Assembly (NCBI RefSeq): GCF_013315695.1 | Contig: NZ_CP054353.1 | Direction: 5' to 3' (one strand) | Length of the DNA stretch: 64,000 nucleotides | DNA from: Escherichia coli | GTDB taxonomy: Bacteria; Pseudomonadota; Gammaproteobacteria; Enterobacterales; Enterobacteriaceae | Shown: positions 43,685 to 62,065 of the stretch, piece by piece | Numbering within the stretch: position 1 is the first letter of the stretch | Layout of the letters: every line of letters starts with the position of its first letter | Notes under the pieces: model-generated | Database searches by the model: none | What the model saw: the letters and a program-made list of their open reading frames with translations, nothing else | Told to the model about the DNA's origin: nothing | Position numbers and translations under genes: made by a program

Positions 43685-43738
43685 TGGTTGTCGAAGTACG
43701 CAGTAAATAAAAAATCCACTTAAGAAGGTAGGTGTTAC

Positions 43739-46021
43739 ATGTCCGAGCTTAATGAAAAGTTAGCCACAGCCTGGGAAGGTTTTACCAAAGGTGACTGGCA
43801 GAATGAAGTAAACGTCCGTGACTTCATTCAGAAAAACTACACTCCGTACGAGGGTGACGAGTCCTTCCTGGCTGGCGCTACTGAAGCGACCACCACCCTG
43901 TGGGACAAAGTAATGGAAGGCGTTAAACTGGAAAACCGCACTCACGCGCCAGTTGACTTTGACACCGCTGTTGCTTCCACCATCACCTCTCACGACGCTG
44001 GTTACATCAACAAGCAGCTTGAGAAAATCGTTGGTCTGCAGACTGAAGCTCCGCTGAAACGTGCTCTTATCCCGTTCGGTGGTATCAAAATGATCGAAGG
44101 TTCCTGCAAAGCGTACAACCGCGAACTGGACCCGATGATCAAAAAAATCTTCACTGAATACCGTAAAACTCACAACCAGGGCGTGTTCGACGTTTACACT
44201 CCGGACATCCTGCGTTGCCGTAAATCCGGTGTTCTGACCGGTCTGCCAGATGCTTATGGCCGTGGTCGTATCATCGGTGACTACCGTCGCGTTGCGCTGT
44301 ACGGTATCGACTACCTGATGAAAGACAAACTTGCACAGTTCACCTCTCTGCAGGCTGATCTGGAAAACGGCGTAAACCTGGAACAGACTATCCGTCTGCG
44401 CGAAGAAATCGCTGAACAGCACCGCGCTCTGGGTCAGATGAAAGAAATGGCTGCGAAATACGGCTACGACATCTCTGGTCCGGCTACCAACGCTCAGGAA
44501 GCTATCCAGTGGACTTACTTCGGCTACCTGGCTGCTGTTAAGTCTCAGAACGGTGCTGCAATGTCCTTCGGTCGTACCTCCACCTTCCTGGATGTGTACA
44601 TCGAACGTGACCTGAAAGCTGGCAAGATCACCGAACAAGAAGCGCAGGAAATGGTTGACCACCTGGTCATGAAACTGCGTATGGTTCGCTTCCTGCGTAC
44701 TCCGGAATACGATGAACTGTTCTCTGGCGACCCGATCTGGGCAACCGAATCTATCGGTGGTATGGGCCTCGACGGTCGTACCCTGGTTACCAAAAACAGC
44801 TTCCGTTTCCTGAACACCCTGTACACCATGGGTCCGTCTCCGGAACCGAACATGACCATTCTGTGGTCTGAAAAACTGCCGCTGAACTTCAAGAAATTCG
44901 CCGCTAAAGTGTCCATCGACACCTCTTCTCTGCAGTATGAGAACGATGACCTGATGCGTCCGGACTTCAACAACGATGACTACGCTATCGCTTGCTGCGT
45001 AAGCCCGATGATCGTTGGTAAACAAATGCAGTTCTTCGGTGCGCGTGCAAACCTGGCGAAAACCATGCTGTACGCAATCAACGGCGGCGTTGACGAAAAA
45101 CTGAAAATGCAGGTTGGTCCGAAGTCTGAGCCGATCAAAGGCGATCTCCTGAACTACGATGAAGTGATGGAGCGCATGGATCACTTCATGGACTGGCTGG
45201 CTAAACAGTACATCACTGCACTGAACATCATCCACTACATGCACGACAAGTACAGCTACGAAGCCTCTCTGATGGCGCTGCACGACCGTGACGTTATCCG
45301 CACCATGGCGTGTGGTATCGCTGGTCTGTCCGTTGCTGCTGACTCCCTGTCTGCAATCAAATATGCGAAAGTTAAACCGATTCGTGACGAAGACGGTCTG
45401 GCTATCGACTTCGAAATCGAAGGCGAATACCCGCAGTTTGGTAACAACGATCCGCGTGTAGATGACCTGGCTGTTGACCTGGTAGAACGTTTCATGAAGA
45501 AAATTCAGAAACTGCACACCTACCGTGACGCTATCCCGACTCAGTCTGTTCTGACCATCACTTCTAACGTTGTGTATGGTAAGAAAACTGGTAACACCCC
45601 AGACGGTCGTCGTGCTGGCGCGCCGTTCGGACCAGGTGCTAACCCGATGCACGGTCGTGACCAGAAAGGTGCAGTAGCCTCTCTGACTTCCGTTGCTAAA
45701 CTGCCGTTTGCTTACGCTAAAGATGGTATCTCCTACACCTTCTCTATCGTTCCGAACGCACTGGGTAAAGACGACGAAGTTCGTAAGACCAACCTGGCTG
45801 GTCTGATGGATGGTTACTTCCACCACGAAGCATCCATCGAAGGTGGTCAGCACCTGAACGTTAACGTGATGAACCGTGAAATGCTGCTCGACGCGATGGA
45901 AAACCCGGAAAAATATCCGCAGCTGACCATCCGTGTATCTGGCTATGCAGTACGTTTCAACTCGCTGACTAAAGAACAGCAGCAGGACGTTATTACTCGT
46001 ACCTTCACTCAATCTATGTAA
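43739..46021 (+). CDS. pflB: pyruvate formate-lyase (formate C-acetyltransferase)
   Basis: 760-aa ORF with the C-terminal glycyl-radical motif RVSGYAV and active-site cysteines (IACCVSPM). Confidence 0.98.
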
Positions 46022-46063
46022 TTAGATTTGACTGAAATCGTACAGTAAAAAGCGTACAATAAA

Positions 46064-46089
46064 GGCTCCACGAAAGTGGGGCCTTTTTT
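46064..46089 (+). terminator. rho-independent terminator of pflB
   Basis: Imperfect hairpin GGCTCCAC-GAAA-GTGGGGCC followed by TTTTTT. Confidence 0.6.
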
Positions 46090-46212
46090 AGCACGAGAGC
46101 CTTTTTTGTCAGCTATCTATACTTTAAGGTGACTGCCAAAACAGACTCGACGTAGCCTTCGAGCTGCGCACCAACACGGCCTCAGATGGGCCACATCTGG
46201 AGAAACACCGCA

Positions 46213-46953
46213 ATGTCAGTTATTGGTCGCATTCACTCCTTTGAATCCTGTGGAACCGTAGACGGCCCGGGTATTCGCTTTATCACCTTTTTCCAGGGCT
46301 GCCTGATGCGCTGCCTGTATTGTCATAACCGCGACACCTGGGATACGCATGGCGGTAAAGAAGTTACCGTTGAAGATTTGATGAAGGAAGTGGTGACCTA
46401 TCGCCACTTTATGAACGCTTCCGGCGGCGGCGTTACCGCATCCGGCGGTGAGGCAATCCTACAAGCTGAGTTTGTTCGTGACTGGTTCCGCGCCTGCAAA
46501 AAAGAAGGCATTCATACCTGTCTGGACACCAACGGTTTTGTTCGTCGTTACGATCCGGTGATTGATGAACTGCTGGAAGTAACCGACCTGGTAATGCTCG
46601 ATCTCAAACAGATGAACGACGAGATCCACCAAAATCTGGTTGGAGTTTCAAACCACCGCACGCTGGAGTTCGCCAAATATCTGGCGAACAAAAATGTGAA
46701 GGTGTGGATCCGCTACGTTGTTGTGCCAGGCTGGTCTGACGATGACGATTCAGCGCATCGCCTCGGTGAATTTACCCGTGATATGGGCAACGTTGAGAAA
46801 ATCGAGCTTCTCCCCTACCACGAACTGGGCAAACACAAATGGGTGGCGATGGGCGAAGAGTACAAGCTCGACGGTGTAAAACCACCGAAAAAAGAGACGA
46901 TGGAGCGAGTAAAAGGCATTCTTGAACAATATGGTCATAAAGTGATGTTTTAG
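46213..46953 (+). CDS. pflA: pyruvate formate-lyase activating enzyme (radical SAM)
   Basis: 246-aa ORF from ATG 46213 ([23 protein letters not shown]...) with the radical-SAM cluster motif [10 protein letters not shown]. Confidence 0.96.
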
Positions 46954-47019
46954 AACATCATTGCAGGTTGAATGTCGACCTGTAATTTTGGCTCCTTCCC
47001 CCTTCTTTTAGTTAGAATA

Positions 47020-47059
47020 AATAAATCAGCGTTGAGTGTATGCTCGACGCTGATTTATT
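47020..47059. terminator. 13-bp-stem hairpin between convergent pflA and bcsC-like gene
   Basis: AATAAATCAGCGT...ACGCTGATTTATT perfect inverted repeat with a 14-nt loop; the only strong structure in the 146-bp convergent gap. Confidence 0.5.
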
Positions 47060-47099
47060 GAGCTTAATTTTCGTACTGTAACTTTCCGATGCTACGTTA

Positions 47100-50000
47100 C
47101 TACCCGTCGGCGTAAGGTATCAGCGGCTGTGGCGGTAAATCCATATCGCCCTGCCATCCGGCGGCGGAATACCGTACATAGAGCTGGAAGTGACTTGGCG
47201 CATAATCCTTCGCTTTCTGGATATCAATCGCCGTACCAACAAACCAGTTGGACGTGACGCGACGTTCAAGTAATGCCCGTGCCGTGTAACCAAAACCCTG
47301 ACTGCTGCTACCACTGTTGGATTGTTGTGCTGCTTCTTCCTGCCAGTCGCTCGGGATCAGGTTCATCAGCGGATAACGCGGCATGGTTTTGGTCCGTGAG
47401 TGCGACCATGAACCTGAAGCCCCCAGCTCCCACGACCAGTTTTCCGTCCGCTCGCGCCACATCACCGGCACCGCAAACGACAGGTATTCCTGCGGGCTGT
47501 AGTAACCGCCCTGACCCAGTGAGTACTCACTCAGGTCTTTGTCGTAATGCCAGATCATGTTGTTCAGGCCAATGGTAACGCGGCGGTTATTCTCGTTGAT
47601 AATTTTATAGTAATAGCCCGTCATCCAGCGCACGCGCCAGTTATCTTCGACATTTTTACCGGTTAACTGATCACCGCTAAGCGATGCCCAGACGCCGTTT
47701 GCTTCACCTTTATCGTAACTCAGACTTAGCCCCACGCCGTCGGCACGCACGCCGCCCCATTTTTTCCCGGTGTTGCCCGGAGAATCTTTCTGCCCGCCGA
47801 AGGCCAGCATTGAGCTGGAGACAGGCCGACGATGTGCGTCAACGGTATAGCCGAGTGGGCCGATACTGTCGCTGTAACTGACAGCGCCGACCACATCCAC
47901 CACGTTGAATCCCATCGGTGTGGTGCCAATATCCCAGCTCCAGGTGTCGTTGCGCCAGCCAACCGCCACGCTTGTGCCGGAGTCTGACTGACTGCGGTTG
48001 CCGCTACACTCCTGCAGCGTACAGGTTCCCCAGTTATCATCCCATTTGCCATCGGCATTAGTGGAGAAACTGCCGACGTTCATATTGACGAAATCACTGC
48101 GAAAGAACATCCGACCGTCAGAATACGGCGCATCCACCTGCAACATGGTGGTATGTGCTTTCAGGTCAGAATAGCCGCCAGTGCCGTTTGATCCCCAGTA
48201 GTCGTGCTCCAGGGTGACATTGAGATCCTGCTGACGATAAAGATCTGCCGCATCGCTGCGCACGCCACGTTTCAGCCAGTCATCCTGCTCATCATTACGG
48301 GTAAGGCGGGTAAAGGTGTCGTTATCCTGCGGACGTGTCGTCGTCACGCCGGAAGCGATCATCGCATCTTTGTAGGTTTCCAGCGCCTGTTGCGGTTCAC
48401 CCGCCTGCGCCTCAAATTTTGCGCCATCGCGCAGTACCATCGCGCTTTCCATCGACGGCGGCTGAGATTTTGCCTGCAGGATCAGCCTGTTAAATGTCTG
48501 CTGTGCCGCTGCGGTATCGCCAAGCTGTGCCTGCACCAACGCCACGCGCCGCTGAGTGTTCAGCGAGGCGTTATCGGTGGCGGGAAGTTTCGCCAGTTGA
48601 CTGCGCGCCGCGGCTTTGTCGCCTGCGGCAATATCCACTTCCGTCAGGCCAAGAATGGCATCGGCGTTATTCGACTCCCGCGCCAGCACATTCTGATACG
48701 CCGTGCGGGCGGCGGTGTAATCGCGTCGCTGTTGTGCCCAGTCAGCCAGCGTAAGATCAATGCGCGTGGAAGGCGGTTGCTGGCGTAGCATCGCCTCCGC
48801 ATCCTGTTCTTTGCCACTGTCACGCAGGCGATTAGCCGTTTCCAGAATCTGATCGCTTTGCAGGCGATTCACCAGTTCCTGAATGTTGCCGTTCCACCGG
48901 GCGCGCGGCAGATTGTTAATATGCGCCAGCGCCGCCCGCTCCTGATCGTGACCGGAGAGATACAGTCCGTAAGCGTAAACCTGGTCCGGGTCGTTCGGCT
49001 TCTGTTGCGCCAGGTTACGCATTAACGTATCAGCCTGGGTACGTTGTCCGGCCTGCCAGAGATCCTGCGAAAGCCGGTAAGTTACCCACACACTGCCGGG
49101 GTCCAGCGCCAGTCGTTGCCGCTGAAGTGCTGCCGCCTGCGCCCATTTACCCTGATTTTCCAGCGCCTCCGCCTGCTGCGATAAGCGATCGTTTTGCAGA
49201 CTGCGTTCGATATCATCAATACTGCGCCGCTGGCTGGCAGAAAGTGACGCAATAAACGCTTCAGCTTTTTCCGGCGATTGCTGCCGATAAATGTTCGCCA
49301 GTCCACGCACGGCGTTAGTGTTGCCGCTGTCCATACGCAGGGTCTGCTGATAATAACGTTCGGCGGCGGGGTAATCTTTTCGCGCCATTGCCACATCACC
49401 CAGCCCCAGCACCGCATAGCTGTCGGTGTTATCGACATTGCGTGCCTGCAGGAACAGGCGTTCCGCCTGATCAGGATTGTTCGCTTTCAGTGCGGCATCG
49501 CCCTGTTGGATCGCCAGCCAATAACGGTTCACTTTCAGCAAACTGTTCCATTTGTCGTTGTTGCTGCTGTGCGGGCCCAGCGCGAGGGCTTTTTCCAGAT
49601 TTGCCACCGCATTCGCGCGATCGCCTTTCTGTGAATAAGCCTGGCCCAGCGCCCCCAATATTGCACCAGAGTTTGGGTTATCAATATTAAGTTTTTTCAA
49701 CTGACTAATTGCCTCGTTGCGACGAGATGCAATTTGCGCCACTGCACTCCAGTATTCCAACGCCATGCCGACATCTGACGGTACTCCGTTAAATAGCTTG
49801 TCATAACTGACAATAGCCTCCTCGTATCGCCCGGAGATAGCTTGTAAACGCGCCATTTGCAATGCCTGGCGCCCCTCAAGCGAAGAAAGTCGCATGACCG
49901 TACGCGATGCTTTATATATTTTTGAATCTGGGGCGATCAGAGAAAGTCTGGCAAGTTGTTTGTGTGCTCCGTCAATATCCCCCTTGCGAAGCAGATAGCG

Positions 50001-50207
50001 AAACCGAGCCGCAACGACATCAGGATTATTGGGCTCCACCAATTCAAGGCGATAAAGCGACTGCTCCACCAGTTCTTCACGGTGAGAGTCTTCTCCCAAT
50101 CGAATCTGTGCCATCAGCAGTTGATAAGCAGTTGGCGTGGCTTTTGCCATCGACATTACCGCCAAACCAAGAGATATGGTGAGTAAATTTAGGGTGAATT
50201 TGTGCAT
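47100..50207 (-). CDS. BcsC-like outer-membrane exopolysaccharide export protein (N-terminal TPR region + C-terminal beta-barrel)
   Basis: About 1035-aa ORF (ATG at 50207; track start 50219 is TTG) with signal peptide MHKFTLNLLTISLGLAVMSMAKA, multiple TPR-like repeats, and a C-terminal region rich in alternating aromatic/Gly beta-strands typical of BcsC barrels. Last gene of the co-oriented cluster. Confidence 0.8.
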   Translation of the reverse strand: MHKFTLNLLTISLGLAVMSMAKATPTAYQLLMAQIRLGEDSHREELVEQSLYRLELVEPNNPDVVAARFRYLLRKGDIDGAHKQLARLSLIAPDSKIYKASRTVMRLSSLEGRQALQMARLQAISGRYEEAIVSYDKLFNGVPSDVGMALEYWSAVAQIASRRNEAISQLKKLNIDNPNSGAILGALGQAYSQKGDRANAVANLEKALALGPHSSNNDKWNSLLKVNRYWLAIQQGDAALKANNPDQAERLFLQARNVDNTDSYAVLGLGDVAMARKDYPAAERYYQQTLRMDSGNTNAVRGLANIYRQQSPEKAEAFIASLSASQRRSIDDIERSLQNDRLSQQAEALENQGKWAQAAALQRQRLALDPGSVWVTYRLSQDLWQAGQRTQADTLMRNLAQQKPNDPDQVYAYGLYLSGHDQERAALAHINNLPRARWNGNIQELVNRLQSDQILETANRLRDSGKEQDAEAMLRQQPPSTRIDLTLADWAQQRRDYTAARTAYQNVLARESNNADAILGLTEVDIAAGDKAAARSQLAKLPATDNASLNTQRRVALVQAQLGDTAAAQQTFNRLILQAKSQPPSMESAMVLRDGAKFEAQAGEPQQALETYKDAMIASGVTTTRPQDNDTFTRLTRNDEQDDWLKRGVRSDAADLYRQQDLNVTLEHDYWGSNGTGGYSDLKAHTTMLQVDAPYSDGRMFFRSDFVNMNVGSFSTNADGKWDDNWGTCTLQECSGNRSQSDSGTSVAVGWRNDTWSWDIGTTPMGFNVVDVVGAVSYSDSIGPLGYTVDAHRRPVSSSMLAFGGQKDSPGNTGKKWGGVRADGVGLSLSYDKGEANGVWASLSGDQLTGKNVEDNWRVRWMTGYYYKIINENNRRVTIGLNNMIWHYDKDLSEYSLGQGGYYSPQEYLSFAVPVMWRERTENWSWELGASGSWSHSRTKTMPRYPLMNLIPSDWQEEAAQQSNSGSSSQGFGYTARALLERRVTSNWFVGTAIDIQKAKDYAPSHFQLYVRYSAAGWQGDMDLPPQPLIPYADG

Positions 50208-51968
50208 ACCTGGACTCAATCAGGTGTTAACTCACTTTTTATTAAAAAATGAATAAGCGCAGTTCCCTGCCCTGCCTGTTTAAGGCCAGAGCAGAGAGCT
50301 ACAAAGATGAATTACTGTTGATGAGGATTCAGACGACGATGGCTAATGATGCGTAGCAGACGCCAGACGACCCACGCCAGAAGCACCACACTCAGCATTG
50401 CCATTCCTGCCAGCAAAACAGGATGTTTCGCTAACATATATTGCGCGCGCTCAATCCAGGGAAGATGCCCCACATAATAGGTATCTCCAACCCGTAAACT
50501 ATCGACACCTGATTCACGAATAACCGCAACTGAGCCAAATATATTGCCACGTTTTGCACTATTAATTAGCGCATTATTAAGTAACTCGTCACCACGTGCC
50601 CCCTCGGTCATTAATGCAATTACGCTACGTTGGGGATGATATGGAGACTGGAAACCAACCACCGCGGCCATTGGCGATGGAGAGATCATGCTTGTTTGTG
50701 TTTCAGTTTTTTGGTTGTTTTCATCTGTCATAATTTGTGCGTTATCAGAGTGCCGCATTGGCGTTTTTACCCAACTAGCGGTTGCATCAATGAGCAGATT
50801 AATTTGCTGCTGACCTGCAAATTCTTGCGGAATTGCCCCTATCAGCAGGATGTCTGCATCCTTATTCTGGATGGAGCTTATATCATCAGTAACTGTCAGA
50901 TTAATTGCCGGAAATCCGGTTTGAGCACCAATCAATCCAAGGGTATTTAGCAATATTTCAACCTGCGTTGTACCAGGATGTTCAGGCATAACGATGACTG
51001 TTTCAGATAAATCGGCCATACGGCTAAAAGGAAAGCCTGAACTAGCAAAGGCGCGTAAATCTGGCATGGCGATAAAGTGATGATACTTTGAAAAATCGAT
51101 AGTAGAATCATCAGCAATAACTGCATGGTTATTCAGAGGCCGGGAAATAATACAACTCCCGTCATCAGTACTCGGTATCGTATTAACGTACTCAAAATTG
51201 AATCGTAATTGATTAAGTGCCCCCAATGTCAGCGCCGGAATGGTAATTTTATTATTGCTATCTGACAATTCTTGCAATAACGGTAAATGTAATAGCAGTC
51301 GATCAGTAGTCGAGCGCGGGCTTGGGCGAAAAGATTCAATGTACTGATTATTAAGATTAACATCAATACGAGAACCGCCTACCATTGGCGTGGTATAGCG
51401 ATAGTTAATCTTCATATCAACCCCACTATTACGTAACAGAAAGAGATCAGGCGGCAAATTGAATGAAACATTAATTGCTGCGATCTGCAGGGCACTTGCC
51501 TGTAACTGTCCTTCATAGTTTTTAAGCTCTGCGAAAGTTACAGGACGATCAGTGCGAACCCAGTTTGGCGCATCATAAGGTTTGCGTGGCAGCAGTGGTT
51601 TCACGTCATTTACAACCACACTATCGCCGCGAAACAGTATATTTCCCTGAGCGAGACCTTTTGCTGCCTGTAATAAATCTTTGTCATCGCGGCCCCAAAT
51701 TACCAACAATTTGACGAAAGGATTTTGTGGATGGTTAATCATCTTAATAACAGGTGCATTCACCAACGGATGATCACGCAAAAAGTCTGGCCGTCTATTG
51801 TTAGTGGCAAAGACTATAGCATTGCTTTCCGGTAACTGATTATAAAAAACTGGAAATTGATGACCACGCCACCCCGATTGCGAACCAAACCACGAAGCGA
51901 CAATTGCAGATGCTTGCTGCAAACCAGCCTCCGGTGGGCCAGCAAAAACCATCGGCAATGTATTAGTA

Positions 51969-51977
51969 CGGTTATCT
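51969..51977. repeat. 9-bp IS1 target-site duplication, left copy (CGGTTATCT)
   Basis: Identical 9-mer at 52746-52754 flanks the other end of IS1. Confidence 0.9.
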
Positions 51978-52032
51978 GGTGATGCTGCCAACTTACTGAT
52001 TTAGTGTATGATGGTGTTTTTGAGGTGCTCCA

Positions 52033-52308
52033 GTGGCTTCTGTTTCTATCAGCTGTCCCTCCTGTTCAGCTACTGACGGGGTGGTGCGTAACGGCAAAAG
52101 CACCGCCGGACATCAGCGCTATCTCTGCTCTCACTGCCGTAAAACATGGCAACTGCAGTTCACTTACACCGCTTCTCAACCCGGTACGCACCAGAAAATC
52201 ATTGATATGGCCATGAATGGCGTTGGATGCCGGGCAACAGCCCGCATTATGGGCGTTGGCCTCAACACGATTTTACGTCACTTAAAAAACTCAGGCCGCA
52301 GTCGGTAA
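52033..52308 (+). CDS. insA: IS1 InsA (transposition inhibitor / N-terminal part of InsAB' transposase)
   Basis: 91-aa [45 protein letters not shown]... matching IS1 InsA. Confidence 0.95.
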
Positions 52309-52730
52309 CCTCGCGCATACAGCCGGGCAGTGACGTCATCGTCTGCGCGGAAATGGACGAACAGTGGGGCTATGTCGGGGCTAAATCGCGCCAGCGCTGG
52401 CTGTTTTACGCGTATGACAGGCTCCGGAAGACGGTTGTTGCGCACGTATTCGGTGAACGCACTATGGCGACGCTGGGGCGTCTTATGAGCCTGCTGTCAC
52501 CCTTTGACGTGGTGATATGGATGACGGATGGCTGGCCGCTGTATGAATCCCGCCTGAAGGGAAAGCTGCACGTAATCAGCAAGCGATATACGCAGCGAAT
52601 TGAGCGGCATAACCTGAATCTGAGGCAGCACCTGGCACGGCTGGGACGGAAGTCGCTGTCGTTCTCAAAATCGGTGGAGCTGCATGACAAAGTCATCGGG
52701 CATTATCTGAACATAAAACACTATCAATAA
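52227..52730 (+). CDS. insB: IS1 InsB frame (expressed as InsAB' via -1 frameshift)
   Basis: 167-aa ORF in the -1 frame relative to insA, matching IS1 InsB. Confidence 0.9.
52282..52290 (+). promoter_or_regulatory. IS1 programmed -1 ribosomal frameshift site (TTAAAAAAC)
   Basis: The A6C slippery motif lies in the insA/insB overlap, where the IS1 frameshift site is known to be. Confidence 0.7.
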
Positions 52731-52745
52731 GTTGGAGTCATTACC

Positions 52746-52754
52746 CGGTTATCT
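52746..52754. repeat. 9-bp IS1 target-site duplication, right copy (CGGTTATCT)
   Basis: Exact repeat of 51969-51977. Confidence 0.9.
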
Positions 52755-53455
52755 CGCGGATCAAAGAATGGCACAGGAAAATATGAAAGATCATTTTGCA
52801 GATTGAGTTTCTGGACGACCAGACCAAGTTCACTGTTACGTCCAATATCAAGCCACAAGTTATTGCTGGTTGAGATTTCACAGCTATTCTGATAATGGCC
52901 AATTAATTCAAAACGCAAACGATTAAAATCCGAGAAATACAATGGGTTAAGCGTTATTTCCGCCAACGTTTTTTTTCCCAGTTGTTCTTTGGTAATCGGT
53001 AATACTCCCATCAACTCATCATTAAGATAAACTTTAAGCTGCGACTGAACGGGGATCAATGACGGTGACGGAGTATATTCAAGCTTTAGTTTTGCATCTG
53101 AAACTATCTCATCACTGCGCATACCAAATTCAATATACCCCAGTGGGTTGACACCATTCAAAACGATGTTACCAGGCGCTGGTGATATTTGTGTAAATGG
53201 AAGTTTAAAATGATAAGAGGAATCTTTCGCATAAACAGAGACGTTAGACTTCTCTATAGCGGGTAATACTATCCCGGAGGGAGACTTATGGATTATGGTA
53301 TCTAAAGCTGATGCAGCATTTGCCTGGTATAACCATAAAAACCCTAAGCAAATTATTGCAGTAATAAATTTTAAATATTTTCTTTCCATTTTAAAAATTT
53401 CAAGAGACATAATCAACACAAATAATATATTTAGTTGGTTAAATATAATCTAAAA

Positions 53456-55570
53456 CTAATTCTCACGACTATTTTTTAGTGTCCGCAGAATATAAAAAAT
53501 CATATTGTAATACCCTTTAAGAGAGATGATACATACGTCAAAAAAGCTCTTTAGTATATTATCTTGCTTAATTTTATCATTCCACTCTTGCCATAATGAA
53601 TCACGTGAAAATGTTACTCTGACATAATTAATATTCTGTTCATAAGTCATTGGCAAAATCTTCAGACCAATTTTATTTTTGTAAGCATGAACAACTTTTA
53701 CAGGAATATCACATTCCCCTTTATTATCACTCAGATAAAGAGACAAATGCTGAGTTTTTTCGATTTCTTTTACATCGGAGATGTGATCAACAATAACCCC
53801 CAGGCCACCTTCGGAGAAATCAATAACAGAACAGGGATAGCACCGTCCATCTGCTAGTTTTATCACACCTTTAAAAGAAACATCTATCCGAGGAGAAAAG
53901 CGGACCTGCTTTTGTTCAATAGAGACTGCCAGGGTTGCGCCAATAATAATTGTATTATAAATCAACCAAATCAAACAAAATAAATTTAATATAACAAGAT
54001 GACCTTGCAATCTATAAATATTAATAACACCTATTATTAGTCCAATTAAATTTAAAATAGCAAAAATAAGATAAGGATATGAGATTCGCCAGTCAACAAA
54101 TTTATTTTTTATTAACCCGCCCTTGGCAGTAACGTTAAATCGCCCTTTAGCTGGCGCAAGTAAGGCAACAAGCGTTGGTAGTGTAATATACCAGGCCAGA
54201 ACCATTTCATAAATTTCATTCCAAAATGAATGTCTGTATTCACCCTGAACTCTTGAGTTAGTAAAAATAATCACAAATAGATAAGGTAGAACATAAGACA
54301 TAATATCTGCAACCGACGCATCTATCAAATTAACTGAAAAGAAAATAGGACATAGTGGCGCGAATAAAAAAATCAGCCGTGGAACCCCTGATAAAAAATG
54401 CATCATGCTACTGAGATAGCAAAGACGCTGTGATAACGTCAGCCCTTTGCCCAATAATGGATTATCAATACGTAAGATTTGGATCATGCCCCTGGCCCAC
54501 CGTATTCGTTGTCCGATATGAGCAGACAATGTTTCGGTAGCAAGTCCAGCGGCCAGAGGATAGCGAAGATATGCGGAGCTGTACCCTGCACGATGCAAGC
54601 GTAGCGATGTATGCGCATCTTCCGTTACCGTTTCAACTGCAATGCCTCCAACCTCATCTAATGCAGACCTACGGATAACCGCGCATGAACCACAAAAAAA
54701 TGAAGCATTCCATGTATCGGTGCCATTCTGGATTAAACCATAAAAAAGATGTCCTTCATTTGGTTTCTGCCGAAATTGCCCCAAGTTTCGCTCAAAAGGA
54801 TCGGGAGAGAAAAAATGATGTGGTGTTTGCAGCATCGATAGTTTTTTATCGGCAATAAACCAGCCCATCGTTTTTTTTAAAAAAGAAACGGAAGGAATAT
54901 GATCACAATCGAAAATAGCAACAAATTCGCCGTTAGCTATTTTAAGCGCATTGTTTATATTTCCAGCTTTCGCATGTTCATGCGTTTCTCTTGCAACATA
55001 GCAAATACCTGACTCATCAGCAAATTTCCTGAATTCGTCTCTGGCACCATCATCAAGAAGCCAGACATGTAATTTATCTTTTGGCCAGTCTAAAGCCAGC
55101 GCTCCATAAACTGTATTCTTCACGACAGTAAAGGGTTCATTATATGTAGGTATGAATATATCGACATCAGGCCATTCTTCTTTATTATCTGGTAAAGGTA
55201 TGCTTTCCCTGTTCAATGGGAAACAGACCTGAAAATAACCAAGTAATAAAACAAACCATGCATACGTTTCAGCAGCTAACAGCGTCAATGAAAAGAAGCT
55301 GTCAGGAAACTCATCAAGAATAACTGAAGAAGAGTAACGCCACCATAGATACCTTGTGGATATAAGTATACCAATACCCATTAAGATCAGGGTAATCATC
55401 CTTCCCCTGAGCAAATTGAGGAGAAAAACAGAGATACAAATGATAATCGAGAATAGTGTTTGTTGATAAAAACCGAGCGGCTGTTCAACAATTGACAAAA
55501 AAACAAAACATAGCAATATAGCAACAAAAAGAAAAATTTTGTTGTATATTTCTTTATTTTTTAAATTCAT
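53456..55570 (-). CDS. BcsA-like processive family-2 glycosyltransferase with C-terminal PilZ (c-di-GMP-binding) domain
   Basis: 704-aa ORF with eight or more predicted TM helices, GT2 motifs (LLDDGARDEF, FDCDH, TVTEDAHT, QRIRWARG, FFCGSCAV) and PilZ motifs (RFSPR = RxxxR; DFSEGG = DxSxxG). About 35% GC. Confidence 0.88.
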   Translation of the reverse strand: MNLKNKEIYNKIFLFVAILLCFVFLSIVEQPLGFYQQTLFSIIICISVFLLNLLRGRMITLILMGIGILISTRYLWWRYSSSVILDEFPDSFFSLTLLAAETYAWFVLLLGYFQVCFPLNRESIPLPDNKEEWPDVDIFIPTYNEPFTVVKNTVYGALALDWPKDKLHVWLLDDGARDEFRKFADESGICYVARETHEHAKAGNINNALKIANGEFVAIFDCDHIPSVSFLKKTMGWFIADKKLSMLQTPHHFFSPDPFERNLGQFRQKPNEGHLFYGLIQNGTDTWNASFFCGSCAVIRRSALDEVGGIAVETVTEDAHTSLRLHRAGYSSAYLRYPLAAGLATETLSAHIGQRIRWARGMIQILRIDNPLLGKGLTLSQRLCYLSSMMHFLSGVPRLIFLFAPLCPIFFSVNLIDASVADIMSYVLPYLFVIIFTNSRVQGEYRHSFWNEIYEMVLAWYITLPTLVALLAPAKGRFNVTAKGGLIKNKFVDWRISYPYLIFAILNLIGLIIGVINIYRLQGHLVILNLFCLIWLIYNTIIIGATLAVSIEQKQVRFSPRIDVSFKGVIKLADGRCYPCSVIDFSEGGLGVIVDHISDVKEIEKTQHLSLYLSDNKGECDIPVKVVHAYKNKIGLKILPMTYEQNINYVRVTFSRDSLWQEWNDKIKQDNILKSFFDVCIISLKGYYNMIFYILRTLKNSREN

Positions 55571-55643
55571 GGTACGTAACTATTCATTAATACTATGATT
55601 TGACTTTAAAAAAACGAATGAATGATGTCATAAAAATAAAATT

Positions 55644-56984
55644 TTAACACCAGGTTACCTGTGCTCTTCCATTTTGCTTACTTTTGTATAATCGTTCATC
55701 TGCCAGTAATTTCAACCGTTCAATGTTATTCATGCACTCGTCAGTATTGGCAACACCAATACTGCAACTACAATTCAATCCACCTATTGAGAAATGGACT
55801 ATTCTGTGCAAAATTCTTGATAATTGATTTATATCTTTATCATGATAAATAATAGCGAACTCATCGCCACCAAATCGATAAACTTCACCTTTGCTGAGGG
55901 GTAATTCATCCTTAATAAGATTAACAAGTCTTATTAGTACTTCATCACCAAATAAATGACCAAACTTGTCATTAATGGTTTTAAACTTATCTACATCAAA
56001 CAGGCATAAATATCCAAAATCCTTACTCAGCATCCTGATATTTTTATCAAAAACACGACACCCAGAAGCTCGCGTCAATGCATCGTAAGTCCCGGAATCA
56101 TATATTTCTCTAATTGCATCAATCTCTTCAACGTTAAAGAATAGATTTTTTCCATGCAAATTATAATGATTATTCGATAATATAGATTCTTTTTCTGACT
56201 TACCCTTATTTATGATTTTTTGCATTAATTTAATGTAATGAAAATATATTAACCCCGCAGAAATCGCCGATGTGAAAACAAAAAACAAGCACATATAAAT
56301 ATACTTATCTTTTTTATAGGCAACAATAAACATTACTTCCGGGATATAAGAATAAGCAAGAGTGATCGCTGATTTCTCAAATACAGCATCATTAATCAAA
56401 AAATCATCACCCGCGATTTTCTTTTCATTATCATTGATATCATAAAATGAGACATATATATTTTCCCGTTCACCTGACTGATTTCTTATCAAAGCCAAAT
56501 AACGTTCAGGATCTACCACTGATATCAAACTTGTTCGTTTCGAAATAGGATGAGCATAATAAATATAATATTTATTATTTAAACTAATAATCCCTCTTTC
56601 AAAGATGTTACTTATACGGATAGAAGAAACTATGCCGTCACAAAAGTTATCCCCTTCCGTTGTAACTTTGGCGCATTTACCATCGCTAATGATATAGGGA
56701 CCTAGATCATAAATATATTCTGGTTTTTGAAAGTCAGCAAAACTATTGCGTATCCTTTTTAACAACTCTTCCGGAGAAATATCTAACCCATAAAATACAT
56801 TATTAAATACTAAGCGCCGATACTCAGACACATTAGCTATAGCAAGCCCACTATCTATGATCGATACCTTTACCGAATTGACTCGATCTTTAACGTAAAT
56901 AGTATACAGATAACATGTCATTACAGAGACACATAAAAAATACAAAAAACAGATCCCTGCTGCCTTTTTTTTATACTTAAACAT
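55644..56984 (-). CDS. membrane-anchored diguanylate cyclase (two TM helices flanking a periplasmic domain + GGDEF domain); DgcI/YliF-like by architecture
   Basis: 446-aa ORF with GGDEF-domain motifs DALT, FDVDKFKTINDKFGH, RFGGDEFAII and ADERLYKSKQNGR; no RxxD I-site five residues upstream of GGDEF. About 30% GC. Confidence 0.85.
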   Translation of the reverse strand: MFKYKKKAAGICFLYFLCVSVMTCYLYTIYVKDRVNSVKVSIIDSGLAIANVSEYRRLVFNNVFYGLDISPEELLKRIRNSFADFQKPEYIYDLGPYIISDGKCAKVTTEGDNFCDGIVSSIRISNIFERGIISLNNKYYIYYAHPISKRTSLISVVDPERYLALIRNQSGERENIYVSFYDINDNEKKIAGDDFLINDAVFEKSAITLAYSYIPEVMFIVAYKKDKYIYMCLFFVFTSAISAGLIYFHYIKLMQKIINKGKSEKESILSNNHYNLHGKNLFFNVEEIDAIREIYDSGTYDALTRASGCRVFDKNIRMLSKDFGYLCLFDVDKFKTINDKFGHLFGDEVLIRLVNLIKDELPLSKGEVYRFGGDEFAIIYHDKDINQLSRILHRIVHFSIGGLNCSCSIGVANTDECMNNIERLKLLADERLYKSKQNGRAQVTWC

Positions 56985-56988
56985 TGTG

Positions 56989-59337
56989 TTATTTTCTTTT
57001 TTTCGGTTTACTGTCTATATGCCACTCTGAAAACGGTAATGGTTTCTGGTATAAATATCCCTGAACATGGGAGAAGCCTAATTTTTGTAATTCTCTGGCC
57101 TGTCTTTCTGTTTCAACACCTTCAGCGATCACTGGCATATTTTCTTCTCGTGCAAGACTAGATATAAAACACACAACCCTGTTAGTTTCATCGAAAATAC
57201 CAGAAGTAAATTCTGAATCAATTTTGATGCTATCAGGTCTAACTTTGTATAATTTTTTCAAGTCAGCTAACCCACTGCCAAAATCATCAAGGGAAATTTT
57301 AATGCCATTTCTTCTTAAAAATTTTATATTATTATAAAAACTATCATTTATATCTTTCATTGCTGACTCGGTGATCTCCAGACAGATTTGTTCCGTATTT
57401 ACGCCAAATTTATTAATTAAATTCAAAACGCGGGTATGGAAATCAAATTCATTTAACTGCCAAGGTGAAACATTGATATGCAGAAGAAATTCTTTCGTAA
57501 TTTCATACTCACGACTAAATGAACCAAATTCACCAATAGCCGTTTCAAGAACAAAATCACCCAGTTCTTTAATTAAGCCAATTTCTTCAGCAACAGGCAC
57601 GAAAACTGATGGTGGTATTGCACCATTTTCAACGGACAACCAGCGGCATAACGCTTCGGCGCCAACAACATTATTACTATCCATATCAACAATCGGTTGA
57701 TATACTAAATAAAACTCACTACTCACAATTGCTTTTTTTATATTTCCAGCAACCCAAACCTTTTGATCAAGTTCATGAGCCTTAATATCATCATAAAATA
57801 TAAATTCAGATTCTTTATTTTCTCGCATAGCTGTTAATGCCAGTTTCAGTTTACCTTCATAAATCGACAAACTTTCCCCTGAAAAAGTTTCACAAATAGC
57901 AACCTTATGAACATAAATATTTCTTATGCAAAAAATATGCTCAGGAAAGTTTAAAACAGATAATCGTTCTATGAACTCTTCACAATGAGTGTGACACAGC
58001 AACAAATATGTTTCAGTAGAAATTTTTATAATATCACAATATTTAGAATACTTTGCTGATATCTTTGATTTTATATCATTAATGATCTCATAAAATTTCT
58101 GACTGCCATGTATAGCCTCTACAAACTCTAATCCATAGATACAAAGCATACCAACTGCTGAATAGGTTTTATTATTAGTTTCAATGACAGATTTGTTGAT
58201 ATAGAAACAACTTCCTTGTTCATAGGAAACAAGATTAAGTAACCGTTCCATCCGCTCTTTGTATTTGTCACTAATGTTATTAATGATTTTTTTGAGCTCA
58301 ATAATCTCACTACTGTCATTTTGCACGATTTCGATTTTATCATTTCGGTATACTGAGCTCGCTAATTTTTTCAGATGCTCAATTAGTTTACCAGAGTCGT
58401 TTCTAACCTTTTTTGTTATCTTTTCAAAAAGGTACCATAATAAACAGAAACAAACCAAACCACATACAAACATCAGTGTAAAATATTTATTTATGTTTGT
58501 GTCTTCTGCTTTTTGATAATGAAAATAATGAAATTTGACATCAGGAAGCCTGGGGAGTGAAATAATATCGTCCGTATAATTACCGTTATTATTACTTATG
58601 TTATAACGTCCAGATGCATCTCTAACAATAAGATGTAACATTGATTGTTCATTACCTACCATAATCCTTTTATTCTGTTCCATAAATAAAATATCTGCAT
58701 TTCCTCCTAATTTGTCCAGGAAATTGCTAAAATATCTTTCATCAAGATCTAAATGAATTAACTTCAGAGCAAATGAATCTTTTTCTGCTTCGGCTGGTCG
58801 TAATGAAAACGAAAAACATTTTTTCCCGGCAATGCCATAGCAGTTATACCATGGTGACCATTTTGAATAAGTCCCTGTTGGTAATTTATTCCAGGGACGG
58901 GATTCAGGATCAAAGTAGTTATCGTTAATTTCACCATCAGGGCTAGTAAAAGCATGACCTGGCTCTGATTGCCCCAAAAATTTAACATCACCATTATCAG
59001 TTCGAATAAAGCTAAGATACTTTCCATTATTTAGCATTATTCCGACTAAATTAACAGAATCTATCTTTTTCATCCGATGAAGAACTGCGCGTTTTATTTC
59101 ATTTTCATCGTGTAACAGATAAATGGCATCTTTTAAAGCATCCGCCTCTTTTTCAACTTTAGAAAAAAAGTTATTCAAATTATTATTGATAAGTATAAGA
59201 TTAATGCGTGAAGAGTTTTCTGCTATTTTTTTATAAAAATCAATGGCTGTAATAAATGATAAAATAATATAGACAGTGACAGCGAATATAAGCGCAGTGT
59301 TAAATCTTGAGTTTAATTTTTCTGTGATGCTATACAT
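56989..59337 (-). CDS. membrane-anchored c-di-GMP phosphodiesterase (periplasmic sensor domain + cytoplasmic linker + EAL domain); PdeI/YliE-like by architecture
   Basis: 782-aa ORF; EAL-domain catalytic motifs are intact (EALCRW, NVSPWQ, EITES, DDFGSGL, KIDSEF, EGVETE, GYLYQKP). Its stop is 4 bp from the dgc start. Confidence 0.85.
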   Translation of the reverse strand: MYSITEKLNSRFNTALIFAVTVYIILSFITAIDFYKKIAENSSRINLILINNNLNNFFSKVEKEADALKDAIYLLHDENEIKRAVLHRMKKIDSVNLVGIMLNNGKYLSFIRTDNGDVKFLGQSEPGHAFTSPDGEINDNYFDPESRPWNKLPTGTYSKWSPWYNCYGIAGKKCFSFSLRPAEAEKDSFALKLIHLDLDERYFSNFLDKLGGNADILFMEQNKRIMVGNEQSMLHLIVRDASGRYNISNNNGNYTDDIISLPRLPDVKFHYFHYQKAEDTNINKYFTLMFVCGLVCFCLLWYLFEKITKKVRNDSGKLIEHLKKLASSVYRNDKIEIVQNDSSEIIELKKIINNISDKYKERMERLLNLVSYEQGSCFYINKSVIETNNKTYSAVGMLCIYGLEFVEAIHGSQKFYEIINDIKSKISAKYSKYCDIIKISTETYLLLCHTHCEEFIERLSVLNFPEHIFCIRNIYVHKVAICETFSGESLSIYEGKLKLALTAMRENKESEFIFYDDIKAHELDQKVWVAGNIKKAIVSSEFYLVYQPIVDMDSNNVVGAEALCRWLSVENGAIPPSVFVPVAEEIGLIKELGDFVLETAIGEFGSFSREYEITKEFLLHINVSPWQLNEFDFHTRVLNLINKFGVNTEQICLEITESAMKDINDSFYNNIKFLRRNGIKISLDDFGSGLADLKKLYKVRPDSIKIDSEFTSGIFDETNRVVCFISSLAREENMPVIAEGVETERQARELQKLGFSHVQGYLYQKPLPFSEWHIDSKPKKRK

Positions 59338-60436
59338 ACTGGTGTTCTGACTAAAATGTTATCAATAATTTCGATATTACATTATATAAAGTTCGGTATA
59401 TGAAATGGTATTAATACTCCTCTTTATGATTTTCTGAATTAAATGATCTCCATTCTGTAAATATATCATAATGAGAAGATTGATTTTCTCTTAATTTACC
59501 AAAGTTATTATCATGCTTATTACTTTAACCAGAATGACATTATCATATATAGCGTTTATACTTTTGCATCTTCCACCCACGCTACCGCCTTTCGTTAATT
59601 TATCAACGAAATAATTTAGATATGAAAAAATCAATATATGACGCCTAAGCTATCACATTATGCATAGTTGCGACATTCACCTCTTTAATTATCCCAAAGA
59701 GGTATTAATGTGAATTCTCTATCATCCATTTTGCTGATTTATCTTTTTTCAGTCATGAGCAATCCGACTCTCTTAGCCAAAATAAATTAATAACCTTAAA
59801 ATGAGGTTTAATCAGAAAGTAGTAGCCACAGCTTGACTATTAAGACTATAAATTAGCCATAACGATGGACAGATAAATATGTTAATGAATACATGTTCAA
59901 TAAAACAATAAGGCACAACGCCAGGCCACCATTTTATTTTAAAAATAAAAGGCTGTGAACTATGCCAGGTATAATCTGATTCTATCGAGAGAGAATTTTT
60001 GTAAGTTACAAATACTGCAAAAGACACATTACACAAAATTTTTAACCACACAAACACCTTGTGTTCTGTATAACAGAACAATAGCTGTGGTCATTTTCAG
60101 CAAGTTTAACTAAAATTATCAAGAATTTTTTTTGATGTATATCAAAAACAATAGTCTTCGCGCATCCGTTACTGCTTAACATTTACCCACAAAGTTCATA
60201 TTTTCACCACACATAATCGTTCACTTCAGAACTTAAAATAATAACTTGCAAAATAACCAATAATTAAAACTATCACTGCATCTAAAAATAAAGATTAAGA
60301 TAACTAAAATTCGTATTATCACGGCATCGTTTATCGCCACCCGTCTCTTAAGAAAAATTTAACTTTGCTATTATCAGTCCTCTCCGAATTTCTCTTCTAT
60401 TTACTGCGATAACCCCGGCGAACCGGGGCATGATGA

Positions 60437-61856
60437 CTATTTCTTATTCGCTTTACGCGCAAGTAACGGGAATATCAGCCCCAGTCCAACCAGGACAAAT
60501 GGCGTCGCAATATTCAGCGCCAACTGAAAAGTCCACTCTGCGGTGAAGGCTTCCATTTTCGGGAAAATCCCTGTCAGGCAGGCAAAAGCGGTAAAGGTAA
60601 AACACCAGATCCCGACAGTCATCGCCAGCGGCCTGTTACGAATAAAGACATACTCTGGTTTATATTTCTGCGCCAGGCGAACGACTGCAATAAATGCAAC
60701 AAATACCCATAAATAACGCAGCGGCATCACTACCGAATTAAGGTTCAACAGCCATTTATAGAGATTGTTCATATCACCAATGCCGAGAGTCGGCAGCATA
60801 ATCAGAATCGCCACCAGTACCAGGGTCAGAAAATAGCCATTAACGGGCGTACCAGAAGCGTTGGTACGACATAAACTGGCTGGAATATATTTGCTATCAG
60901 CATCGCCTAATAGTACTTTAAGCGGCGCATCAATCGAGAATACCAGCGCAGCTACTTGTCCCAGGGTATTCGCAATGGCGTAAATCACCATTAAAGTATT
61001 ACCCATGTTGTAATACTCGCCCAGCTTCTGAAAGGCGTAATACTGACCGTTGGTCATTAAGTCATCCGGGATATTACGCGAATCAAACATCATCCCCATC
61101 GCCAGCGAGCCCAGAATGGCACAAACCGCAACCATCACCGCCAGGCATAACATCCCTTTTGGAAATTCTTTTCCTGGGTTGCGCGTTTGATTAACGTAAG
61201 GAGAAATCTTCTCTGCTCCGCCAACCGCGAAAACCAGCATTGAAATAGTGGTAATGTAGGTAAAGTCGATATGAGGAATGAACGTTTCCCAGGTAATGTT
61301 TGTGGTCGCAATATGCACTTCAGTAATTGCAGGCGCGGTTACCGCCATCGCCACATACAGGAGCGACATAACAAACATCGCAATCCCTGCCACAGAACCG
61401 ACGATTTTCAGCGATTTCATACCGCGTGAAGCAACCCACATAAAGAAGATAAACAGCACCAGCGTTAACCCCTGTAACGCTACGACTGAATATTCTTTGA
61501 TTAACGAACCGTCGCCTTTCATCGCCCAACCGAGCGCAATCAGTATTGCCTGGGGTTTTTGTGCCAGATAGGGAATATGCACTACCCAGTAGGTCCACGC
61601 GGCGAGGTAAGCCAGTCCGGGTCCCATCGTGTGTTTAATCCAGGTACTGACCCCGCCCTTCCCATCTTTGAAGGTCGAGCCTAACTGACCAACAATTAGC
61701 GCATAAGGTGTGAAATAGAGCGCAAAGATAAACACCCATGAAAAACCCCTGGTTGGCGTAGTTATTAACAACGTTGCCAAAACCCCAGACAGTGATAAAA
61801 GACATCAGCGCAATGTTGTACCATCGCAGCTGTTTTTCCTGAACATTCCCAGCCAT
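60437..61856 (-). pseudogene. ycaM: APC-family amino acid/polyamine transporter gene with a frameshift near the 5' end
   Basis: The N-terminal 37 codons (MAGNVQEKQLRWYNIALMSFITVWGFGNVVNNYANQG, from ATG 61856) are in one frame and the remaining 447-codon ORF (from 61780) in another; the frames switch at an A5/T5 homopolymer at 61741-61745. Confidence 0.7.
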
Positions 61857-62065
61857 AGACAAATCCTTCGCCAAAATTAAAGGGGCATCTGTAAAACGAG
61901 GGATTATGCGCGGCAAATAAGAAGTGCGGAAATAGCGAAATGCAAAATTATAACCTGCTGCACATTTTATTTTGAAACGAATAAAATTTGGAATAAAGCA
62001 AGTCAGATAGAAGAAACAAAAAAGCAGAGTGTGAAACAGTAAGTTCACACTCTGCGTTAATTCAT

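Follow-up and report, generated by a model that had tools for sequence, protein, structure and literature searches.

What lies between pflA and ycaM in this Escherichia coli chromosome, and how did it come to be there? The preliminary description, starting from the K-12 gene order, expected ycaK and ycaN at this position and reported 13.5 kb of different DNA instead, which it took for a likely replacement-type accessory island at a conserved chromosomal site. We addressed the question in the window, the whole stretch of 64,000 nucleotides that was analysed, to which E. coli MSB1_4I (NZ_LR898874.1) is a 100% match.

The pflA-ycaM interval and its contents

The expected order is that of strain 55989 (pflA-ycaK-ycaN-ycaM). 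In a BLAST comparison with this strain, window positions 42002-46952 and 60438-64000 align, with zero homology between them. Homology to ordinary E. coli breaks off with the stop codon of pflA (46953) and is restored at that of ycaM (60437), so that the inserted block and its two edges, mapped to the base, are as had been claimed. The insert is 13,483 bp long (12,706 bp without IS1 and one copy of its target duplication), and the sequence it displaced spans 1,680 bp with ycaK and ycaN in strain 55989.

The proposal of a replacement-type accessory island is supported, and the segment has no mobility genes, but the site is less conserved than assumed. Among complete E. coli genomes (n=5,426), ycaK-ycaN is found at a coverage of at least 80% in 3,323, as remnants only in 1,721, and has no match in 382. 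The pflA-ycaD interval takes at least five structural forms, and pflA is joined directly to ycaD in some strains. The K-12 arrangement of the pflA-ycaM interval is not universal. Nor is the island the common state of the species: it is present in 9 of these 5,426 genomes (0.17%), on the chromosome and at the same site in all nine. E. ruysiae and E. marmotae have it at the same locus. In the window, ycaM is a pseudogene, while the sister carrier MS 21-1 has an intact copy. A protein search contradicted the idea that ycaM stands beside pflA in Salmonella, as YcaM is nearly without enterobacterial relatives outside Escherichia, and no ancestral state of the site is argued from it.

The cargo, which the preliminary description did not identify, is an accessory bcs cellulose-synthase cluster with c-di-GMP enzymes of its own. 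The island consists of five genes and an IS1, with intergenic gaps of 4-104 bp, the leader excepted. The genes form an operon on the minus strand, in the order leader, pdeI-like, dgcI-like, bcsA3, bcsB3, and bcsC3; none of bcsE, bcsF, bcsG, bcsQ, bcsR, and bcsZ is found in the island. The features are, in window coordinates:

46954..47099, no strand: spacer between the convergent genes pflA and bcsC3; 38.4% GC, no homology to 55989
47100..50207, minus strand: bcsC3, outer-membrane cellulose exporter, 1,035 aa; NCBIfam BcsC NF008520, 1859.9 bits against a cutoff of 858
50312..51977, minus strand: bcsB3 3' fragment (C-terminal 555 aa); NCBIfam BcsB NF008325, profile positions 211-765
51978..52745, plus strand: IS1A in bcsB3, 768 bp; annotated transposase with programmed frameshift
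52746..53410, minus strand: bcsB3 5' fragment (N-terminal ~220 aa); NF008325, profile positions 3-216
53456..55570, minus strand: bcsA3, short-form cellulose synthase catalytic subunit, predicted to be c-di-GMP-gated, 704 aa
55644..56984, minus strand: predicted DgcI (YliF)-like diguanylate cyclase; Pfam GAPES2 1.2e-39, GGDEF 2e-21
56989..59337, minus strand: predicted PdeI (YliE)-like c-di-GMP phosphodiesterase; Pfam CHASE9 7.9e-38, EAL 2.1e-64
59338..60436, minus strand: AT-rich non-coding leader/putative promoter region of the island operon; 1,099 bp, 31% GC
60437..61856, minus strand: ycaM pseudogene; 11-bp deletion near 61746 leading to a frameshift (gap against 55989; annotated as frameshifted)

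The catalytic subunit BcsA3 scores 1012.8 bits with the NCBIfam BcsA equivalog NF008558 (cutoff 992) and aligns to residues 160-829 of the E. coli BcsA structure 7LBY. This alignment shows that it keeps the GT2 motifs LDDG, DCDH, TED, QRIRW, and FFCGS. Its PilZ domain (Pfam PF07238, precomputed) has RFSPR and DFSEGG (RxxxR and DxSxxG) where E. coli BcsA has RRSHR and DFSDGG. Clusters with such a short BcsA are few: among 5.8 billion proteins we found only three, all in Escherichia, and the next matches are at 56%.

The bcsB3 gene is present directly downstream of bcsA3 but split by the IS1, and its 3' fragment is annotated as a pseudogene lacking the N-terminus. The assignment to the BcsB family holds, because the intact orthologue of MS 21-1 (766 aa) exceeds the NF008325 cutoff (1159.8 bits against 922). 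The IS1 is 99-100% identical to IS1A copies and is flanked by 9-bp target-site duplications (CGGTTATCT, at 51969-51977 and 52746-52754); carriers with an intact bcsB3 align straight across the site. BcsA requires BcsB for catalysis. Since the IS1 splits bcsB3, the operon is, as judged from its sequence, dead in the source strain, and the insertion should also be polar on bcsC3. The native bcs locus of this strain was hit as well, another IS1 having removed the 5' end of bcsE, the divergent promoters, and the 5' end of bcsR.

The two upstream genes encode a predicted c-di-GMP signalling pair. The DgcI-like protein has an intact GGDEF motif, and the PdeI-like protein has EALxR, DDFGSG, and EGVE. 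An assignment of CHASE9 and GAPES2 to PdeK and DgcQ was rejected: direct alignment and the text of a recent preprint (10.1101/2025.05.09.653004) identify the homologues as PdeI and DgcI. In distant BLAST searches of plasmids, the two genes matched only dgcI/pdeI, of the core genome or of plasmids, at 64-68%.

The 1.1 kb of AT-rich non-coding DNA that had been noticed next to ycaM is indeed there: it is the leader of the operon, 1,099 bp at 31.1% GC, with a GC-rich hairpin adjoining the ycaM stop. Its length is the same in alleles A and B (see below), but it is the least conserved segment of the island (72-74% between allele groups). The alleles share no ORF in it, and a distant BLAST against the plasmid collection found no match to it. 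A search of Rfam with 46000-61000 (E <= 1) gave zero matches; therefore the leader has no c-di-GMP riboswitch or sRNA known to that database. We infer that it carries the operon promoter. A promoter/terminator consensus scan returned 55 promoter-like sites against 38.7 +/- 6.3 expected, scattered across AT-rich coding DNA, and was not above background within the leader. At the other end of the operon, the spacer between pflA and bcsC3 contains a hairpin at 47020-47059 (inverted repeat I8; 17-nt arms, 94% complementary, 6-nt loop) that is likely a bidirectional terminator for the two genes.

Entry of the island into E. coli

The flanks of the island are informative about its arrival. Divergence from 55989 rises to 11-15% across the terminal 150-200 bp of pflA and ycaM, in two tracts:

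46800..46953, plus strand: left recombination tract, pflA 3' end; 17 mismatches in 154 nt against 55989, upstream 0-3 per 100 nt
60437..60640, minus strand: right recombination tract, ycaM 3' end; 30 mismatches in 200 nt against 55989, beyond it 0-4 per 100 nt

By the mismatch profile, the exchanges took place within the two genes rather than at their ends, near 46800 in pflA and near 60640 in ycaM. The left-tract pattern is common to the other allele-A carriers, while allele-B carriers have a longer pflA tract, which matches the E. ruysiae-like strain E69; their tracts at both ends of the island follow the E69 pattern. There is no tRNA in 40000-64000, no integrase in the annotation or in the list of open reading frames, and the repeat search revealed no att-like or boundary repeats flanking the island. 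The segment is thus not an integrase- or tRNA-associated genomic island, and the lack of these elements, together with the divergent ends of pflA and ycaM, points to entry by homologous recombination. Very probably, what recombined into E. coli here is a second, accessory operon for cellulose synthesis from an Escherichia lineage carrying the cluster at the same locus, and the 3' part of its bcsC3 has since been converted.

The alleles show at least three such entries. The allele of N3 and GF43 is 97.5% identical to that of E. ruysiae, and the allele of 06-00048 is 99.2% identical to that of E69, so that both clearly came from E. ruysiae-like donors. The remaining entry would be allele A, the allele of the source strain, which occurs only in genomes labelled E. 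coli and differs by ~15% from the alleles of E. ruysiae and E. marmotae. Its donor was not found among the Escherichia alleles compared. A scan of the GTDB species representatives for BcsA3 peptides (exact 8-mers of allele A) gave only E69; it missed E. marmotae, which bears the island, and its negatives are therefore weak.

Could the cluster instead be ancestral at the pflA locus of Escherichia and vertically inherited, with allele A as the surviving E. coli version and the flanking tracts as old linked polymorphism? The locus shared by E. coli, E. ruysiae, and E. marmotae, the confinement of allele A to genomes labelled E. coli, and the absence of mobility genes would all fit such a relic, as would the fact that the three allele groups are about equidistant (84-86%), near the between-species figure of ycaD (87.5-88.8%). 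However, between E. ruysiae and E. marmotae the island has diverged about twice as fast as ycaD (14% against 7%), and a vertically inherited E. coli allele should therefore be ~23% away, not 15%. A long-term resident should also be at least as homogenised with the native bcsC as the B alleles of E. ruysiae-like donors, which already have long native-type blocks, whereas the 3' part of allele-A bcsC3 is still 10-12% from every native bcsC of E. coli that we examined. Finally, allele A is present in only 0.11% of genomes (6/5,426), and five of its six carriers have identical flanking PflB, YcaD, and DmsC proteins, apparently representing one clone. We thus regard vertical descent as unlikely. 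Insertion of a classical mobile island or composite transposon, mediated by IS1 or an integrase, is far less probable still. It would account for the IS1 copy within the segment and for a GC content of only 31-37% over 7 kb, a low value typical of horizontally acquired DNA. Yet this single IS1 is a private insertion in bcsB3 with its own 9-bp duplication and is absent from seven of the nine carriers; the borders lack an integrase, a tRNA, an att-like direct repeat, or a second IS, and they fall exactly at two stop codons with graded divergence in the flanks. Recombination between homologous flanks remains our preferred explanation, and it would mean that an exopolysaccharide operon without mobility genes moves between Escherichia species via flanking homology.

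Gene conversion of bcsC3 and predicted function

In the E. coli carriers, the resident paralogue has overwritten parts of the bcsC of the island. The gene is a chimera of an island-type 5' part (552 nt, 47.6% GC, 67-70% nucleotide identity to native bcsC) and a native-bcsC-like 3' part (2,556 nt, 47100-49655, 57.2% GC, 88-90% identity), and 366 nt (~120 aa) of native TPR sequence are missing from it. Alleles A, B, and C all have the same junction. Between N3 and E69, identity of bcsC3 falls from 99.6% in the 5' part to 93.6% in the 3' part. At the 149 sites where E69 differs from an invariant base of native E. coli bcsC, the native base is present at 104 in N3 and at 69 in 06-00048, and these sites lie in long blocks (62-74 runs would be expected, and only 13-15 are seen; z = -9.8). 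After entry, the resident native bcsC thus overwrites the native-like 3' 2.5 kb of bcsC3 block by block, by ectopic gene conversion. A tract of roughly 320 nt of allele A is also found in the native bcsC of ~84 island-free genomes of E. coli of ST648 type. It is conceivable, though we hold this only tentatively, that bcs3, instead of being a sporadic acquisition by horizontal transfer, is a long-standing second cellulose system of environmental E. marmotae and E. ruysiae at a fixed locus, from which it leaks into E. coli by homologous recombination, with bcsC3 kept compatible with the host by repeated conversion from native bcsC that also runs in the other direction. If true, two exopolysaccharide operons lying 1-3 Mb from each other would be evolving in concert, which would explain why bcs2 and bcs3 alike have a native-type bcsC.

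The domain content and the established biology of Bcs systems suggest how an intact cluster would work. The CHASE9-EAL and GAPES2-GGDEF membrane sensors would set the local level of c-di-GMP, whose binding to the PilZ domain of the short BcsA3 would release autoinhibition. BcsA3 and BcsB3 would then polymerise UDP-glucose and push the beta-1,4-glucan across the inner membrane, and BcsC3 would export it across the outer membrane. Given the absence of bcsE/F/G/Z/Q/R, the cellulose made would carry no phosphoethanolamine and be unmodified. Inactivating lesions are found in five of the nine carriers and arose in three independent events (an IS1, an IS3, and a frameshift in the phosphodiesterase gene). 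One may thus ask if the cluster makes no cellulose even when intact, being a transient, decaying paralogue or chiefly a c-di-GMP signalling pair, as these lesions, the strong AT drift of the genes, the TPR deletion in BcsC3, and the failure of second bcs operons to become established in E. coli (according to the text of 10.1101/2025.05.09.653004) could indicate. We find this improbable, since BcsA3 retains every catalytic and c-di-GMP-binding motif, the GGDEF and EAL motifs are likewise intact, and the five open reading frames are full length in four carriers (MS 21-1, E7-1N7, N3, and 06-00048) as well as in E. marmotae and E. ruysiae. That they remain so despite ~15% nucleotide divergence between alleles implies purifying selection.

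In E. coli, cellulose is both an anti-virulence factor and a major component of the biofilm matrix. A second synthase under different regulation could therefore alter how biofilms behave in the few lineages retaining it. The frequent inactivation fits the view, expressed in the text of 10.1101/2025.05.09.653004, that E. coli is not a favourable host for a second bcs operon.

Comparison with known bcs systems

This kind of cluster is already known from the text of the preprint cited above (10.1101/2025.05.09.653004; Hosseinpourlamardi, Römling et al., bioRxiv 2025), which reports, from Escherichia only, BcsA3 clusters (bcsABC) on the chromosome next to homologues of YliE/YliF. By this description and by percent identity, the island matches the BcsA3 type, whose reference sequence in the preprint is HDP8224287.1. 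Like the island, the clusters described there are chromosomal, consist of bcsABC alone with YliE/YliF-type EAL and GGDEF neighbours, and encode a short BcsA without the N-terminus of roughly 150 aa. Their BcsA has about 41% full-length identity to BcsA1, and that of the island 41.9% to native BcsA (365/872 residues). The experiments described in the preprint concern the unrelated type 4 cluster only, and its supplementary tables hold plasmid-borne clusters but no chromosomal carriers. Its text, figures aside (Figure 2A may show the context), mentions neither the pflA/ycaM site and the loss of ycaK-ycaN nor that E. marmotae and E. ruysiae have the cluster there. The same text is silent on recombination footprints and three deep alleles, on the chimeric bcsC and how the native gene converts it, and on the five broken carriers among nine and the IS1-hit native bcs of the source strain. 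As the type had been described and the copy in this island is broken, our finding is mainly a well-resolved example.

The core class II bcs locus of E. coli (bcsRQABZC / bcsEFG) makes phosphoethanolamine cellulose. The island shares its BcsA-BcsB-BcsC machinery and PilZ-gated mechanism, with 53% identity to the native protein for BcsA3 (over 689 aa), 66% for BcsB3, and 94-100% for the C-terminal 850 aa of BcsC3. In contrast to the core locus, it lacks the bcsE/F/G and bcsQ/R/Z sets that mark a class II phosphoethanolamine-cellulose system, the N-terminal extension of BcsA, and ~120 aa of TPR in BcsC. It also has its own diguanylate cyclase and phosphodiesterase pair inside the operon and a GC content of 31-47%, against about 52-57%. 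This pair shares gene order and domain layout with core pdeI-dgcI (yliE-yliF): one protein is CHASE9-...-EAL, 782 aa long in island and core alike, and the other is GAPES2-GGDEF. Identity is nevertheless only 38% to core PdeI (over 780 aa) and 41% to core DgcI (over the full length), and the core genes are linked to gsiABCD instead of a bcs operon. The plasmid BcsA2 cluster (p0111/IncFIB, e.g., pTB402, NZ_CP034786.1) resembles the island in having bcsABC alone, a native-derived bcsC, and a short BcsA, 73% identical to BcsA3. It differs in being carried by plasmids with flanking IS elements, in the group II intron between its bcsB and bcsC, in a BcsB2 only 61% identical to BcsB3, and in a BcsC2 that, unlike BcsC3, is full length and 98.4% identical to the native protein throughout.

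The insert between pflA and ycaM

The window is identical in sequence to part of the chromosome of E. coli MSB1_4I (NZ_LR898874.1), a human rectal-swab isolate. Positions 1-42000, from ssuA to focA, are ordinary core genome; an IS4 transposase gene lies there between aroA and ycaL, at about 35779-37125 (position mapped from the RefSeq annotation). The alignment of the window to strain 55989, which has the K-12 order pflA-ycaK-ycaN-ycaM, comprises only 42002-46952 and 60438-64000, with homology breaking at the stop codons of pflA and ycaM. Hence ycaK and ycaN do occupy in 55989 the place where the preliminary description expected them and are missing from the window, the 1,680 bp that carry them being exchanged for 13,483 bp that do not align, which matches the ca. 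13.5 kb of different DNA reported at this site. The very AT-rich non-coding DNA noted beside ycaM corresponds to 59338-60436 (1,099 bp, 31% GC).

The preliminary description thus identified the anomaly and its nature correctly. Its idea of a replacement-type island holds, and the block is far from being carried by most E. coli (9 of 5,426 complete genomes), but the site is less conserved than assumed. The ycaK-ycaN pair is essentially complete in 61% of E. coli genomes, deletion forms are common, and the pflA-ycaD interval is a hot spot of structural variation, occurring in at least five forms among the compared loci (L002, L008, L009, L019/L020).

Forms of the pflA-ycaD interval
Form 1: ycaK-ycaN-ycaM
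Form 2: ycaN remnant and ycaM
Form 3: direct pflA-ycaD junction
Form 4: the island (bcs3) and ycaM
Form 5: bcs3 without ycaM (E. marmotae)

The flanking gene ycaM (60437-61856; 7632-9062 in L002) has its own peculiarities. Among 5.8 billion proteins searched, YcaM had almost no relatives in other Enterobacteriaceae, and the matches following the Escherichia clusters were permeases of Paenibacillus, Brevibacillus and Clostridium (63-70% identity). On this evidence, ycaM resembles an ancient acquisition from Firmicutes. Relative to 55989, it has an 11-bp deletion at 61746 that causes a frameshift, also present in the carriers AF14 and OZ546911 and absent from MS 21-1.

Genes and lesions of the island (46954-60436)
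PdeI-like phosphodiesterase (PDE) gene: minus strand, 782 aa, CHASE9 and EAL domains
DgcI-like cyclase (DGC) gene: minus strand, 446 aa, GAPES2 and GGDEF domains
bcsA: minus strand, 704 aa
bcsB: minus strand, 766 aa in its intact form
bcsC: minus strand, 1,035 aa
51978-52745: IS1A, 768 bp, inside bcsB, with a 9-bp target duplication

The island genes, which all lie on the minus strand, do not include bcsZ, bcsQ, bcsR, bcsE, bcsF or bcsG. The phosphodiesterase is 38% identical to the core PdeI/YliE over its full length, and the cyclase 41% identical to DgcI/YliF. BcsA, BcsC and intact BcsB pass the NCBI curated equivalog cut-offs. The island BcsA can be aligned with residues 160-829 of the E. 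coli BcsA structure 7LBY; it keeps all catalytic motifs and the PilZ c-di-GMP-binding motifs and lacks an N-terminal extension of about 150 residues. GC content climbs steadily along the operon, from 31-32% in the leader, PDE and DGC genes to 37% in bcsA, 38-44% in bcsB, and 48% and 57% in the 5' and 3' parts of bcsC. The leader (59338-60436) has no Rfam match and no ORF conserved between allele A, the version in the window, and allele B, the E. ruysiae-like versions. Both alleles have a short minus-strand ATG ORF at the same position (about 59440-59470, some 100 nt upstream of the PDE start), of 30 codons in A and 43 in B, with the common pattern M-YL--GD--I-K-IKR. This ORF may encode a leader peptide or have arisen by chance.

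MSB1_4I carries another IS1A copy in its native bcs locus, outside the window (NZ_LR898874.1 217974-221088; 2974-6088 of L011), where the 5' end of bcsE, the divergent bcsE/bcsR promoters and the 5' end of bcsR should be. Because IS1 disrupts both island bcsB and the native locus, the strain's two cellulose systems are probably inactive.

Distribution and mode of entry

In all 9 carriers the island lies between pflA and ycaM. Four of them have it intact (MS 21-1, E7-1N7, N3 and 06-00048). The other five have lesions that go back to three separate events: bcsB is interrupted by IS1 in MSB1_4I and OZ547117 and by IS3 in GF43, and the PDE gene is frameshifted in AF14 and OZ546911. Among 5.8 billion proteins, the short BcsA forms a clade made up of three clusters at 90% identity, each from Escherichia: the island's own (414 members, E. 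ruysiae included), that of E. marmotae (88% identity, 106 members), and a plasmid type (73%). Beyond this clade, the nearest proteins are ordinary 870-aa enterobacterial BcsA (52-56%). The cluster is found at the same locus in E. ruysiae and E. marmotae, in the latter without ycaM.

We found no integrase, tRNA or boundary repeat associated with the island. Relative to ordinary E. coli, its flanks are 0-3% divergent, rising to 11-15% in the final ca. 150 nt of pflA and the final ca. 200 nt of ycaM. In carriers of the second allele the divergent tracts are longer and match base for base those of the E. ruysiae-like strain E69, which shares 98.95% identity with E. ruysiae in ycaD. Compared over its unique 8.3 kb, the island falls into three deep allele groups about 15% apart: allele A, found only in E. 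coli and for which no donor was found, the E. ruysiae group, and E. marmotae. Within the second group, identity is 97.5% between E. coli N3 and E. ruysiae, and 99.2% between 06-00048 and E69. The simplest reading of these sequences is that the island entered E. coli at least three times by allelic replacement, through a double crossover in pflA and ycaM.

A chimeric bcsC

Over its first ca. 550 nt, island bcsC shares 67-70% identity with native bcsC; 366 nt of native sequence are then absent, and identity over the remaining 2,556 nt is 88-97%. Since the junction is identical in all alleles, the fusion is old. N3 and E69 share 99.6% identity in the 5' part of the gene, a value that falls to 93.6% in the 3' part. 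Of the 149 positions that distinguish E69 from the invariant native bcsC of E. coli, 104 have the native base in N3 and 69 in 06-00048, in long contiguous blocks whose limits differ between the two strains (runs test: 13 and 15 runs observed versus 62 and 74 expected, z = -9.8). This block-wise pattern indicates that the 3' part of the paralogous gene is overwritten by the resident one once in E. coli. All native E. coli bcsC genes compared still differ by 10-12% from the 3' part of the gene in allele A, which argues for a recent arrival of this allele rather than long-term residence. In the opposite direction, the ST648-type native bcsC (L006, from strains lacking the island; ca. 84 genomes in its identity band) has a tract of about 320 nt, at alignment columns 1737-2057, with 37 allele-A-specific bases and 100% identity to the island bcsC of the window.

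The plasmid-borne bcs2 cluster (pTB402, NZ_CP034786.1 10505-21426) repeats this pattern, with 98.4% identity to the native protein for BcsC2 and only 56-60% for BcsA2 and BcsB2. Its bcsB and bcsC are separated by the reverse transcriptase gene of a group II intron, and it has copies of IS1, IS3 and IS26 on its flanks. Several PLSDB records of 0.7-4.9 Mb (H80-H82, H132-H135) are evidently chromosomes or chromosome fragments, and account for spurious "plasmid" matches of native bcsC and dgcI/pdeI.

Relation to known cellulose synthase clusters

The cargo of the island is a rare, already known accessory cellulose-synthase operon, probably inactive in this strain. A preprint from the Römling laboratory (10.1101/2025.05.09.653004) describes, in its accessible text, accessory BcsA2, BcsA3 and BcsA4 clusters in E. 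coli, the BcsA3 type being a chromosomal bcsABC restricted to Escherichia, with adjacent YliE/YliF homologues and a short BcsA about 41% identical to BcsA1. The island matches all these features (41.9% identity over the full length), an assignment by description and percent identity. The same portion of the preprint does not mention pflA, ycaM or ycaK. Only the evolutionary mechanics go beyond the routine, namely the transfer between species driven by homology and the concerted evolution of bcsC. Set against the system described in the preprint, the insertion site, recombination footprints, allele structure and bcsC conversion appear to be added detail and not a new kind of system.
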